From a phage: 64,000 nucleotides of DNA. Below the pieces are notes generated by a model. It worked only from the letters and a program-made list of their open reading frames with translations. It was not told the DNA's origin and ran no database searches. Shown here piece by piece: positions 52,155 to 56,554 of this stretch (positions are counted from its first letter, which is position 1; every line of letters starts with the position of its first letter). Position numbers and translations under genes: made by a program. The DNA is taken from the NCBI GenBank assembly GCA_010671865.1, contig GCA_010671865.1_4083.1. One strand, 5' to 3'.

Positions 52155-52346
52155 TTACTTTCTATATATAAGCATTAAGATATAGTAGTACTGATTATAC
52201 TGTACATTCTCTTTAATATTATAAGGGTCTATAGCAATCTCGGTACATCTGTTAAATGCATATCTATTAAATGCCAGTGGAATTATAGATCTAATCCATA
52301 CTTGTTCATTTTCTTTTAGTTTACTTATATAGAAGTTTTTATACAT
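52155..52346 (-). CDS. hypothetical small protein, family C
   Basis: 63-aa ORF; C-term YYYILMLIYRK. Confidence 0.55.
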   Translation of the reverse strand: MYKNFYISKLKENEQVWIRSIIPLAFNRYAFNRCTEIAIDPYNIKENVQYNQYYYILMLIYRK

Positions 52347-52361
52347 AGTATTCTCTATTAA

Positions 52362-52544
52362 TTAATATGATAGTACTAGTGTTAGTACTGAGCACAATTG
52401 TTCTTTATAGTTCTTAGGGTATATAGAATCTTTTATGCACTCATTGAAGTGCCATAGGTATAATCTTGGGTCGCATTCTTTATATATTCTTACGGGGACG
52501 AATGTTAGTTTTCGTATATAGAATTCTTTATGTTCTTTATTCAT
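52362..52544 (-). CDS. hypothetical small protein, family C
   Basis: 60-aa ORF; N-term MNKEHKEFYIRKL, C-term VLTLVLSY. Confidence 0.55.
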   Translation of the reverse strand: MNKEHKEFYIRKLTFVPVRIYKECDPRLYLWHFNECIKDSIYPKNYKEQLCSVLTLVLSY

Positions 52545-52549
52545 ATTAG

Positions 52550-52735
52550 TTAGTGTCTGTATATAAGTAATAGTAAGAATACGTATTGCACATCTTCATC
52601 TTTAGTATTGAGTACTGTACGTATTGCGTCATTAAACAAGAATATAGTACTTGGGTCATGAGAATTTAAAGGGGTTCTGGGTACGGCATGTTTGTAGTTC
52701 CCTTTAACAAATTGTGTGTAGTATTCTCTATGCAT
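52550..52735 (-). CDS. hypothetical small protein, family C
   Basis: 61-aa ORF; N-term MHREYYTQF, C-term FLLLLIYRH. Confidence 0.6.
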   Translation of the reverse strand: MHREYYTQFVKGNYKHAVPRTPLNSHDPSTIFLFNDAIRTVLNTKDEDVQYVFLLLLIYRH

Positions 52736-52736
52736 A

Positions 52737-52922
52737 TTAGTACCTATATATTAGGGCGAGAATGTAGTACAATTCATATGGAATGTAATTTGGGGTGATC
52801 GCACACTGTGTATGGTAAATGAATTGTTCGGTATTTTTCTTATCCTTGATATCTATTGGGATTTGTGGTATAAGCATTTGGGAGTTTAGATCGAGATGGC
52901 TTAAGTAGAATTCTTTATGCAT
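52737..52922 (-). CDS. hypothetical small protein, family C
   Basis: 61-aa ORF; N-term MHKEFYLSHL, C-term YILALIYRY. Confidence 0.6.
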   Translation of the reverse strand: MHKEFYLSHLDLNSQMLIPQIPIDIKDKKNTEQFIYHTQCAITPNYIPYELYYILALIYRY

Positions 52923-52931
52923 ATTGTTCTT

Positions 52932-53120
52932 TTAGAATACGAAAGCTAGGTACAGTACATGATACAGTACTCGATGGTAGCTGTCAAAATCTAGTATACA
53001 TGCTTTAGTGCACATAGTAAAGTACACTTTATCGTTTTGTGCATTGATACCGCGAGGTTTATCTAATAGATTAGTACTGAGGTACATTGGGAAATATTTT
53101 GTGTAGTATTCTTTATGCAT
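52932..53120 (-). CDS. hypothetical small protein, family C
   Basis: track ORF 52932..53165 trimmed to MHKEYYTKYF. Confidence 0.55.
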   Translation of the reverse strand: MHKEYYTKYFPMYLSTNLLDKPRGINAQNDKVYFTMCTKACILDFDSYHRVLYHVLYLAFVF

Positions 53121-53121
53121 A

Positions 53122-53304
53122 TTAGTACCTGAATATAAGTAGGATAGTGTTATATAGCTGGTCATAACTACTACTATTTTCTATACTTCGTTCTATGCAG
53201 TTATTGAATCCCAGTACTGCCAAATCGTTATCCATAGGGACTTTGTATCTGGCGTAGTGTTCAAAAATGCTGGGGAGAAATTGTGTGTAGTATTCTTTGT
53301 GCAT
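53122..53304 (-). CDS. hypothetical small protein, family C
   Basis: 60-aa ORF; N-term MHKEYYTQFL, C-term ILLIFRY. Confidence 0.6.
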   Translation of the reverse strand: MHKEYYTQFLPSIFEHYARYKVPMDNDLAVLGFNNCIERSIENSSSYDQLYNTILLIFRY

Positions 53305-53305
53305 A

Positions 53306-53497
53306 TTAGTACCTATATATTAGTAAAAGGATGTGATACAGTACTCGATTATAGTCTTCAATATATATCGAGGATTTAGTGCACTGAATGAAGTAGTCTT
53401 TTTCGTAGTTTTTTTCTATACCCAATGGTTCTGTTGGTACAAGGTGTTGGAGATACATTGGGAGTTTCTCTATGTAGTATTCTTTGTGGTTATTCAT
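53306..53497 (-). CDS. hypothetical small protein, family C
   Basis: 63-aa ORF; N-term MNNHKEYYIEKL, C-term ILLLIYRY. Confidence 0.6.
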   Translation of the reverse strand: MNNHKEYYIEKLPMYLQHLVPTEPLGIEKNYEKDYFIQCTKSSIYIEDYNRVLYHILLLIYRY

Positions 53498-53505
53498 ATT
53501 ATGTG

Positions 53506-53685
53506 TTATTTCGTGAAAACAAGGGTTAGTACTGCATAGTACAAGTCATACGTATCTTTAGGGTTAATAGCACCTTTAATACATTCTTTCATTAATTCAT
53601 TATAGATAATTTTAGTACTGAATGTATTGGATGTTACTATATCGGAATTAAGGTACGAGAGGTAGAATTCTTTATAAGTATTCAT
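53506..53685 (-). CDS. hypothetical small protein, family C (~59 aa)
   Basis: hand-translated MNTYKEFYLSYL...AVLTLVFTK; below track cutoff; approximate. Confidence 0.4.
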   Translation of the reverse strand: MNTYKEFYLSYLNSDIVTSNTFSTKIIYNELMKECIKGAINPKDTYDLYYAVLTLVFTK

Positions 53686-54908: not shown

Positions 54909-54915
54909 GTCTACC

Positions 54916-55095
54916 TTAGATTGAGATTAGTTTAAGTACTTCTCTGTACGTGTACTTTTCGTTTTGTGCTTCTACTGTACACGAGAGTAGATAACGTTTT
55001 TTATCTCTTTTGTTCCCGACTGTGTAGTACCTTTGGAATTTATTATAGTTGTATCTATCTTTGTGCTGGAGGTTATAGATATAGAATTCTTGCAT
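54916..55095 (-). CDS. hypothetical small protein, family C (~59 aa)
   Basis: hand-translated MQEFYIYNLQHKDRY...YREVLKLISI; approximate. Confidence 0.4.
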   Translation of the reverse strand: MQEFYIYNLQHKDRYNYNKFQRYYTVGNKRDKKRYLLSCTVEAQNEKYTYREVLKLISI

Positions 55096-55103
55096 AGAGT
55101 ACC

Positions 55104-55289
55104 TTATATTGCTATCAGTTTGAGTACTTCAATATATGTGCGGTACTCTGCTTTAATTAAATTTGTACACACTGTAAGGGAATTTCTTTGTATAAGTTTA
55201 TTGCCGCTTTTATACGCATTTCTCCACACATAGAGATGAGATCTTTCAGGCATAGATAGTTTATTGGTATAGTACTCAAATGTATTCAT
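55104..55289 (-). CDS. hypothetical small protein, family C
   Basis: 61-aa ORF; N-term MNTFEYYTNKL, C-term IEVLKLIAI. Confidence 0.6.
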   Translation of the reverse strand: MNTFEYYTNKLSMPERSHLYVWRNAYKSGNKLIQRNSLTVCTNLIKAEYRTYIEVLKLIAI

Positions 55290-55297
55290 ATATTACC

Positions 55298-55480
55298 TCA
55301 AATAGAGATTAGTTTAAGTACTTCTCTGTATGTGTACTTTTCGTTTTGTGCATCTCTTGTGCTTGTATATAGGTATCCTCGACGATATTTGTTGCTCCCG
55401 TTCTTGTAGTTGAATTCGAACTTATTGTAGATGAATCTATCGCCAGGCTGTAATTTACTTAAGTACAATTCAATGTTCAT
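55298..55480 (-). CDS. hypothetical small protein, family C
   Basis: track ORF 55298..55501 trimmed to MNIELYLSKL; C-term YREVLKLISI. Confidence 0.5.
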   Translation of the reverse strand: MNIELYLSKLQPGDRFIYNKFEFNYKNGSNKYRRGYLYTSTRDAQNEKYTYREVLKLISI

Positions 55481-55490
55481 AGTATTCTCT

Positions 55491-55676
55491 TTACATTTCA
55501 ATAAGTTTAAGTACTGCTCGGTACGTGTACTTAGTTGTCAGTGCTTCTTTAATAGAAATACAGAAGTAATGTTGTTTGTCTCTTATACTGCCGCGTTTGT
55601 AGTACCACACATGGGAGTTGTGACTGTACTTGTCTCTGTCGGATAGTTGTTGGTAGTAGTAGCTTATATGATTCAT
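55491..55676 (-). CDS. hypothetical small protein, family C
   Basis: 61-aa ORF; N-term MNHISYYYQQL, C-term YRAVLKLIEM. Confidence 0.6.
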   Translation of the reverse strand: MNHISYYYQQLSDRDKYSHNSHVWYYKRGSIRDKQHYFCISIKEALTTKYTYRAVLKLIEM

Positions 55677-55728
55677 TATAATGTAATTAGCCTTACTATA
55701 TTAAAGTACTCGGTCCCTGGTGTACCTT

Positions 55729-55923
55729 TTAGAACTTAAAGATGAGGTTCAGGATAGAGCGGTACTTAGTTTCAGGGAACTGATGTTCTATTGCATAACG
55801 TGTCACCATCCTGAAATCGTAATTATAATACAGATTATCCTTTCTCATAGGTGGTGCTAAAGAGAATGATAGCTGTTCTTGTTTGGGTAGTTTACTACAA
55901 TAGAAATCTTTATGATTATTCAT
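55729..55923 (-). CDS. hypothetical small protein, family C
   Basis: 64-aa ORF; N-term MNNHKDFYCSKL, C-term SILNLIFKF. Confidence 0.55.
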   Translation of the reverse strand: MNNHKDFYCSKLPKQEQLSFSLAPPMRKDNLYYNYDFRMVTRYAIEHQFPETKYRSILNLIFKF

Positions 55924-56125
55924 AGAAATATATTAGTCCTATTAAACCTGAGTACATAATATTTTTGTTATTGCATTCGATTGCTTCTAGAGTACTACGT
56001 ATACAATTATTAAAGCAATCTCTACCGAATTGAGTATTGGTACTTACAGGTGATACACTCCTTAGAAACAATTGTTCTTCGTTGCTAAGGTATTTGGTGT
56101 AGAATTCTTTATGTTCAGTATTCAT
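55916..56125 (-). CDS. hypothetical small protein, family C
   Basis: 69-aa ORF; N-term MNTEHKEFYTKYL. Confidence 0.55.
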   Translation of the reverse strand: MNTEHKEFYTKYLSNEEQLFLRSVSPVSTNTQFGRDCFNNCIRSTLEAIECNNKNIMYSGLIGLIYFYE

Positions 56126-56126
56126 A

Positions 56127-56330
56127 TTAGTACTCGATTAATAGGGTAAGGATGTAATAGTATTGCATACATTCTACCCCTTGTAAAGCATTTCTTATGT
56201 TATTATTCCTGTACGAGTTCAGGAGTTTAGGGCTACGTTTGAGGTGTTTGAAATTAGTTTGTGTATGCAGTAGGCTTTCACGTAGACCTTTTGTTGGTAG
56301 TGCATCGATGTAGTACTGTTCGATATTCAT
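56127..56330 (-). CDS. hypothetical small protein, family C
   Basis: 67-aa ORF; N-term MNIEQYYIDAL, C-term YILTLLIEY. Confidence 0.55.
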   Translation of the reverse strand: MNIEQYYIDALPTKGLRESLLHTQTNFKHLKRSPKLLNSYRNNNIRNALQGVECMQYYYILTLLIEY

Positions 56331-56554
56331 ATAGATAGCAGTACTAAGATTTTTGATAATTGTTTATTGCTATCCCCGCAGATGTTGCTGTGTAAAATAC
56401 TCACAATGAGGGTATCAATTGCATTGTTCATCATAAGGGTGCATCCTGGACTATTATAATTTTTTAGCTCAATTAGCCACGAACTATCCGCGAGAAATTC
56501 CCCGTACTCTAGTTCATTTAGAGTATTGAGGTAGTACTTAAGAGTATTTGTCAT
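56327..56554 (-). CDS. hypothetical small protein, family C (first gene of array)
   Basis: 75-aa ORF; N-term MTNTLKYYLNTL, C-term KILVLLSI; AAGGAG RBS. Confidence 0.55.
   Translation of the reverse strand: MTNTLKYYLNTLNELEYGEFLADSSWLIELKNYNSPGCTLMMNNAIDTLIVSILHSNICGDSNKQLSKILVLLSI

Follow-up and report, generated by a model that had tools for sequence, protein, structure and literature searches.

The DNA analysed here is a 64,000-nucleotide stretch of a phage genome (contig GCA_010671865.1_4083.1 of NCBI GenBank assembly GCA_010671865.1; hereafter the window), and our subject is a tandem array of small paralogous genes on its minus strand at 52,155-56,554. Open reading frame (ORF) listing and re-extraction gave 19 small ORFs of 59-75 amino acids (aa) and one 219-aa ORF in this interval. 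Together with a family hidden Markov model (HMM), the listing confirmed the tandem array that an initial annotation, made from the sequence itself, had placed there, and reduced its estimate of about 20 paralogs to 19 small genes, two of them marginal members. A megablast search with positions 52,000-57,000 identified the source as an Asteriusvirus jumbo coliphage. The closest record was Escherichia phage SP27 (99.7% identity, 100% query coverage), and all 37 phage records matched were Asteriusvirus jumbo phages of Escherichia or Salmonella. The sequence is therefore already public, with its genes labelled 'hypothetical protein'.

The array is tightly packed, with a coding density of 96.7% and intergenic gaps of -8 to +15 nt other than a single gap of 52 nt. 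Many junctions have the form stop-T-ATG or ATGA with AGG or AAGG just ahead, a layout that suggests the genes are probably translationally coupled. We moved three starts to internal ATG codons, at 53,120 (was 53,165), 53,869 (was 53,932), and 55,480 (was 55,501), because each yields the family N-terminus; two of the three match the annotations of phages 121Q and SP27. Five of the 19 small genes are absent from the closest GenBank record: SP27 annotates 14 and omits m02, m06, m07, m09, and m18 (52,362-52,544; 53,122-53,497; 53,687-53,869; 56,127-56,330), all of which are annotated in 121Q and SHEFM2K.

Numbered against the direction of transcription, the array begins with m19 (75 aa; 56,327-56,554), a marginal family member ending in …KILVLLSI that has orthologues in all arrays examined, followed by the borderline member m18 (67 aa; 56,127-56,330; …ILTLLIEY). 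Two genes of subfamily A come next, m17 (69 aa; 55,916-56,125) and m16 (64 aa; 55,729-55,923). The block of subfamily B consists of m15 (61 aa; 55,491-55,676; …AVLKLIEM), m14 (60 aa; 55,298-55,480, with the corrected start as in SP27), m13 (61 aa; 55,104-55,289; …IEVLKLIAI), m12 (59 aa; 54,916-55,095; …EVLKLISI), m11 (62 aa; 54,720-54,908), and m10 (59 aa; 54,532-54,711; …EILALASV). Beyond the 219-aa gene (53,862-54,521) lie nine further genes of subfamily A: m09 (60 aa; 53,687-53,869, start corrected), m08 (59 aa; 53,506-53,685), m07 (63 aa; 53,306-53,497), m06 (60 aa; 53,122-53,304), m05 (62 aa; 52,932-53,120, start corrected, the 62-aa form being annotated in 121Q), m04 (61 aa; 52,737-52,922), m03 (61 aa; 52,550-52,735), m02 (60 aa; 52,362-52,544), and m01 (63 aa; 52,155-52,346), the last gene of the array. 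All are on the minus strand.

A family of small, predicted helical proteins under selection

Seventeen of the 19 small genes are firm members of one family, divided into subfamily A (…LIYRY) and a tight second subfamily, B (…EVLKLISI), comprising m10-m15. The motifs quoted by the initial annotation were found, at the N-terminus as M-(x)-[HY]-K-E-[YF]-Y…L and at the C-terminus as ILLLIYRY, EVLKLISI, or IEVLKLIAI. Its proposal of one tandem paralog family is supported by two comparisons. An HMM built solely from m01-m09, when run against the window's 598 six-frame ORFs, recovered m17 (E = 1.5e-12) and m16 (E = 7.8e-9) and matched nothing outside the array. Profiles of A and B, with homologues from other phages included, aligned over their full length (53 columns) with an hhalign probability of 92.3% and E = 5.7e-7. 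A subfamily-A HMM also matched m13 (E = 7e-4), and the divergent phages Turkey5 and JNE01 carry forms intermediate between the two subfamilies. The link to the remaining two genes is looser: the m18 type was borderline against subfamily A (hhalign P 2.4e-4, probability 44%, 57 columns), and the m19 type aligned weakly to A and B, with the alignment limited to the termini (P 0.008-0.02). Paralogs share 12-56% protein identity and no long-period DNA tandem repeat was detected in the array, so the duplications are old. A non-coding RNA or a DNA tandem repeat was rejected as an explanation of the locus, given no matches in Rfam and no such repeat.

The family is confined to Asteriusvirus, where it occurs in 36 phage records. 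A word-indexed search of 5.8 billion proteins returned 53 clusters, and an HMM search run exhaustively over 1.84 billion representative proteins returned 33 family representatives, all of Asteriusvirus type. Subfamily A members match PHROG 11711, which has no assigned function, over their full length (E = 6e-28 for m07, 2e-24 for m06, and 1.7e-12 for m17), and the SHEFM2K annotation assigns several array genes to it; B representatives, m18, and m19 had no match to PHROG 11711 in the same profile search. Array proteins had no match among Pfam, NCBIfam, PADLOC, or PDB sequence profiles. Beyond PHROG 11711, and PHROG 29152 for the 219-aa gene, remote-homology searches returned only ~60-aa proteins of the same genus for the small family. 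We found no paper on this array or on the AGTACT motif described below in the literature searched. None of those papers treats the array as a unit or reports how its members are related, where it lies relative to the terminal repeat, which promoter it has, what fold its proteins are predicted to adopt, or how its content turns over.

We compared the locus across 12 phages, namely the window and the homologous locus of 11 further phages. Of about 211 family copies, 205 are intact, and the few broken copies all come from one 'UNVERIFIED' record. Turkey5 and JNE01 have the same architecture as the window, with divergent RCC1-like genes, small genes, a ~224-aa gene, and more small genes, and their orthologues retain length and motifs at ~40-50% identity to the window proteins. 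The ratio of nonsynonymous to synonymous substitution rates (dN/dS), from Nei-Gojobori counts on minimum spanning trees of 40 orthologue clusters (111 edges, 742 substitutions), was 0.32 for the family overall. By region, the N-terminal helices (0.21) and the C-terminal helix (0.24) had the lowest values, and the loop and helix 3 had 0.43 each; simple pairwise values were 0.30-0.41. The array ORFs are real, selected genes. The initial annotation had named the lack of any family signal beyond AT-rich codon bias as the finding that would speak against the array; dN/dS and the intact copies argue otherwise, and a reading of the ORFs as an AT-rich artefact is excluded by the selection and conservation data.

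Array content differs between phages. The 12 phages carry 15-21 small genes each, which fall into 52 types when clustered at 70% identity. A backbone of eight or so types is present in nearly all main-clade phages; the B block and several A types are variably present, and one type has shifted in position. Inside one genome pair, neighbouring orthologues range from 77% to 100% nucleotide identity, a mosaic that suggests recombination. Gene junctions share a ~45-nt common stretch at roughly 90% identity, which is a plausible substrate for unequal exchange. Array content probably changes through recombination between such near-identical junctions (…ATATATAGGTACTAAT|ATGCAYAAAGAATACTAC…), and this would account both for the range of 15-21 copies per phage and for the diversity of 52 types.

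We modelled m07 with AlphaFold2 on a 40-sequence family alignment. The model (predicted local distance difference test score, pLDDT, 90.8; predicted template-modelling score, pTM, 0.75) has helices at residues 3-10, 14-17, 30-45, and 49-62, and a loop at 18-29. The conserved motifs KEYY..L and Y..IL.LI correspond to the first and last helices, and variable residues fall in the loop and helix 3. According to this confident model, the protein is a small soluble helical bundle whose terminal helices form the hydrophobic core. Fold searches with the model returned nothing specific and no fold relative. Tyrosine makes up 11% of residues in the family. One cysteine is semi-conserved, and no zinc-ribbon or other recognisable domain was found with Pfam and NCBIfam profiles. 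Subfamily B is basic, with a net charge of +5 to +6 (+6 in m12), and subfamily A is near neutral.

Every member has a hydrophobic C-terminal stretch, such as ILLLIYRY or VLKLISI, as would be expected if the proteins were membrane-associated through a tail anchor, for example in superinfection exclusion or in holin/antiholin-like roles. The hydrophobic run is however only ~8-12 residues long, and no transmembrane segment was predicted, the highest 19-residue Kyte-Doolittle mean being 1.18 against the usual threshold of ~1.6. No signal peptide or lipobox was found in the array proteins. AlphaFold packs the C-terminal segment as the last helix of the bundle (49-62) with pLDDT above 88. The hydrophobic tail emphasised by the initial annotation does not hold up as a membrane tail, and we consider membrane association highly improbable.

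Promoter, terminal repeat, and the AGTACT signal

A σ70-type promoter lies at the head of the array on the minus strand (56,580-56,608). It consists of TTGACA, a 17-nt spacer containing AGTACT, and TACTAT, followed by an AAGGAG ribosome-binding site, and together these elements sit upstream of m19 in the 102-bp gap between the array and the divergent RCC1-like genes. Eight Asteriusvirus phages, among them the two most divergent, Turkey5 and JNE01, retain the ribosome-binding site and both promoter elements (-35 and -10), while the spacer bases vary. This conserved sequence supports the initial suggestion that the array is transcribed leftward from a promoter in the divergent gap. A second promoter-like site was predicted inside m05 (52,959-52,987, minus strand), with TTGACA, 10 nt, AGTACTG, and TATCAT, matching 11 of 12 consensus positions.

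The array is also adjacent to the terminal repeat. The ends of phage fEgEco12 were mapped by PhageTerm and restriction digests, giving a direct terminal repeat of 20,993 bp (PMC13070987). By BLAST, fEgEco12 nt 1 aligns to window position 51,891, running downward, and its last nt aligns to 31,996, so that window 31,996-51,891 is the equivalent of the ~20-kb direct terminal repeat. The array is thus the last unique segment ahead of the right-hand repeat; it ends 264 bp from the repeat boundary and is transcribed toward it. The equivalent of the outer edge of the repeat (51,871-51,891, minus strand) contains the hairpin GGCAGAGGAAGTCTGCC (51,871-51,887), 4-20 nt inside the end. Just outside the end, at 51,950-52,040, are short TGATTAC-like repeats of 10 nt. 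The hairpin and these repeats may be terminase or replication signals.

The adjacent repeat contains ~30 near-consensus σ70 promoters on the same strand as the array and of the same design as the array promoter. These occur at ~33,300-51,530 on the minus strand as TTGACA-16/17-TATAAT, many matching 12 of 12 consensus positions, with AGTACT at a fixed place, as 'AGTACTG TATAAT' or 'AGTAC TTGCAA'. Most are followed, within ~10 nt, by a GC-rich stem-loop GGGGAGAA-n4-TTCTCCCC without a T-run. Promoter and stem-loop together resemble a recurrent design of early transcription units that have a hairpin in the 5' untranslated region. A 213-aa ORF in the repeat equivalent (35,756-36,397, minus strand) matches protein-kinase domains weakly and below threshold (PF07714, E = 1.2e-3; PF00069, E = 3.4e-3) and may encode an early phage kinase.

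Terminal-repeat genes are expressed early in PA5oct, a related RaK2-like jumbo phage, according to RNA-seq (PMC7318152), and early expression was proposed from promoters for a σ70-promoter block of small ORFs in phage CBB (PMC5259590). Because the array has a σ70-type promoter, abuts the terminal repeat, and parallels the PA5oct and CBB genes, it is likely expressed early by the host σ70 RNA polymerase.

AGTACT is the most over-represented hexamer: the window contains 258 copies, where dinucleotide shuffles give 19.8 ± 4.7. It is over-represented 12-20-fold, reaching ~20-fold in the repeat and array, is densest at 31,996-56,554, and has the extended form CAGTACTG. GTAC density peaks in the array at 18 per kb, the highest in the window. 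CGTACG and GGTACC are absent from the window, and GCGC is absent where ~56 are expected. In a 50-kb structural and metabolic segment of SP27 (230,000-279,999), AGTACT is 6-fold enriched and GCGC is again absent (~41 expected). The AGTACT excess and the GCGC absence are genome-wide properties and not specific to the array. The absence of GCGC suggests that a nuclease specific for this site, from the host or from a phage, is being strongly avoided. Both signals point to a DNA-recognition system in these phages.

We shuffled synonymous codons in the 19 array genes while holding proteins and codon usage constant. AGTACT occurred 24 times against 6.4 ± 2.1 in the shuffles, and GTAC 63 times against 30 ± 3.7; the same excess was found in 121Q, Turkey5, and JNE01. 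AGTACT sites occur in each of the three reading frames, frequently across the codons for the two invariant residues, Y8 and L59. With AGTACT overlapping the conserved termini, conservation of the 'protein motifs' may partly arise at the DNA level, and the locus may be shaped jointly by protein-level and DNA-level selection.

One alternative is that the genes are decaying or neutral leftovers of duplication, in an array kept by its DNA signals (AGTACT, promoters) or by hitch-hiking. Copy number does vary between phages, AGTACT and GTAC inside the ORFs exceed the needs of protein and codon usage, and a dN/dS of 0.32 is relaxed compared with core genes. Yet 205 of ~211 copies are intact in DNA of 33% GC, where a 60-codon open frame arises by chance at ~1% (from base composition), dN/dS is well under 1 in all four protein regions, the Turkey5 and JNE01 orthologues have kept length and motifs, and the AlphaFold fold is confident. 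Of all the explanations weighed, we give this one the least credence.

A second explanation that involves AGTACT is that the array encodes small nucleic-acid-binding or regulatory proteins, binding for example AGTACT or early mRNAs and so setting when early transcription is shut off. The motif sits at a fixed position in the ~30 early promoters, which makes some AGTACT-binding factor plausible. The charge of subfamily B, the peak of GTAC density in the array, and the small, helical character of the modelled proteins would fit such a role. It is set against the near-neutral charge of subfamily A and the lack of a helix-turn-helix or other DNA-binding domain in Pfam and NCBIfam, and 19 divergent paralogs would be ill-suited to one invariant 6-bp site. 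We consider it unlikely.

The embedded gene, the neighbouring arrays, and the virion

The larger gene that the initial annotation described as embedded in the array is present at 53,862-54,521, and sits between the B and A blocks in 12 of the 12 arrays examined. It belongs to PHROG 29152, which has no function assigned, and its homologues are within the genus only. An AlphaFold model of the 219-aa protein was unusable (pLDDT 36). The gene had been called 'FQ-motif-like', a label that refers to the ~180-aa 'FQ-motif' paralog family of the window. This description holds for a 19-residue motif, ELSEEDLFMYSTVIDNPEL in the 219-aa gene against WDSEEYYFQQSTVYDNEVL in the ~180-aa family, which aligns over 19 columns (SEExxFxxSTVxDNxxL; hhalign P 0.0025, probability 12%), but it does not extend to full-length homology: the ~180-aa family HMM had no match to the 219-aa ORF at E ≤ 1, and pairwise phmmer against one member of that family gave 0.0035. 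In two Salmonella-host phages, SD-2_S15 and SD-6_S16, the 219-aa gene is truncated and the small genes are intact.

Six RCC1-like (β-propeller) paralogs of ~380-430 aa occupy the plus strand at 56,639-63,916. The probable start of the first is 56,657, which follows an AAGGAGG ribosome-binding site, and not 56,639. Their array is back-to-back with the small-gene array in all 12 phages examined. Mass spectrometry of phage phAPEC6 virions detected their homologues gp549 and gp551 (PMC7247149). The phAPEC6 virion proteome of 62 proteins includes no array member such as gp542c or gp545c, although a protein as small as 4.7 kDa was detected in the same study (PMC7247149), which fits a non-structural role for the array.

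The constant position of the 219-aa gene and the constant pairing with RCC1-like genes raise the possibility that the small proteins partner either the 219-aa protein or the RCC1-like virion proteins, as adaptors, inhibitors, or chaperones, and that the two divergent arrays, both multi-copy, co-diversify. The truncations in SD-2_S15 and SD-6_S16, where the small genes remain intact, speak against such a role. The small-gene count (15-21) does not obviously follow the RCC1 count, the small proteins are not among the phAPEC6 virion proteins, and the σ70 promoter suggests a timing unlike that of late structural genes. A partner role of this kind appears quite unlikely.

The virion data also bear on a role as packaged and injected internal proteins (IPs). 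The T-even IP locus encodes tandem, highly polymorphic small proteins with a short conserved N-terminus, and IPI* has an anti-restriction role (PMC3012670). By this model the conserved N-terminus of the array proteins would direct them to the capsid, and their variable body would be cargo that acts against restriction. Otherwise divergent tandem paralogs do share a short N-terminal motif here, and 121Q-type heads hold internal protein material, seen as bubblegrams (PMC7247149). Against this, the phAPEC6 virion proteome includes none of the array proteins, the model makes the N-terminal motif one of the helices that build the fold, the C-terminus is just as conserved, and the predicted promoter is σ70-type and not late-type. 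The [LI]xE motif, the specificity of the T4 gp21 prohead protease, occurs within the first 25 residues of 4 of the 19 members, at positions 10-16 with no common register. Packaging and injection of these proteins is very unlikely on this evidence.

Two further groups of minus-strand genes lie elsewhere in the window. Positions 367-23,083 contain ~45 ORFs of 110-220 aa, with profile-linked paralog clusters of 18 and 10 members. They share the motif W-D-S-E-E-Y-Y-F-Q-x-S-T-V-Y-D, whose codons hold two AGTACT sites, and all match PHROGs without an assigned function. At 25,545-31,528 lies another tandem array, whose 27 genes encode proteins of ~70-90 aa with GTNYQE-Y as their central motif and belong to PHROG 4148, likewise without an assigned function. 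Kinship of this 25.5-31.5 kb array with the 60-aa family was rejected, the two being unrelated at an hhalign probability of 5%.

Proposed role and relation to known loci

Our leading explanation, which we hold tentatively, is that the array proteins are cytoplasmic accessory factors, made early in infection for host takeover or anti-defence, in which a conserved scaffold carries a variable surface. Host σ70 RNA polymerase would transcribe the array from the 56,608-56,580 promoter, as part of an early accessory gene block that abuts and continues into the ~20-kb direct terminal repeat. Each gene would encode a ~60-residue soluble cytoplasmic protein folded as a small helical bundle, and variation of the loop and third helix between paralogs would give each a different surface on the shared scaffold. 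The paralogs could then act as small binding proteins on host targets, and possibly on phage targets. We infer the cytoplasmic binding function, the host-directed role, the early timing, and the recombination mechanism. A more specific version, which we find rather doubtful, is a diversified counter-defence arsenal built from one scaffold, with 15-21 copies per phage and at least 52 variants in the genus. Each variant would be directed at its own immunity or host factor of E. coli, neutralising it soon after infection begins, and phages would exchange cassettes at the conserved junctions.

Several observations count against a set of early host-directed proteins. Searches of PADLOC, PHROGs, Pfam, NCBIfam, PDB, and predicted folds returned no similarity to a characterised host-takeover or anti-defence protein. 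dN/dS exceeded 1 in none of the four regions (highest 0.43), so the variable part reflects relaxed constraint and not positive selection. The conserved termini partly overlap selected AGTACT sites and the 'protein motifs' are therefore not purely protein-level signals, and the basic charge of subfamily B would also fit nucleic-acid binding. The early timing is drawn from promoter sequence and analogy with other phages, and binding and a host-directed role are proposals.

Orphan genes fill large parts of jumbo-phage genomes, and here ~4.4 kb is given to one small-protein family. Its architecture is conserved and its content variable throughout a genus whose coliphages are candidates for therapy. 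Should the proteins be early effectors directed at the host, the locus would amount to a compact natural library, with >50 variants of one 60-residue scaffold, in which to look for inhibitors of host functions or defence systems. The array might then also help explain differences in host range between Asteriusvirus isolates.

The array resembles several known loci in part. Like the T-even IP locus, it is a tandem set of small proteins with a shared short N-terminus and a content that differs between related phages. Unlike the IP locus, its proteins were not found in the virion, both termini are conserved within the predicted fold, there is no conserved protease site, and the promoter is σ70-type. 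Like the direct terminal repeat genes of PA5oct and the early region of CBB, the array consists of unidirectional small orphan ORFs with σ70-type promoters at a genome end. The T5 pre-early genes and the SPO1 host-takeover module are likewise blocks of small genes in or next to long terminal repeats. Those four blocks are mixtures of unrelated genes, whereas the array is one 19-member family just outside the repeat, and its takeover role is only proposed. Bacillus phage G has a ~35-copy zinc-ribbon family (PMC7824862), which is similar as a small-protein family greatly expanded within one jumbo-phage lineage; the array proteins differ in having no zinc-ribbon or other recognisable domain. The array is an orphan case of a known locus type, in which a large lytic phage carries an expanded family of small accessory genes in what is probably its early region.

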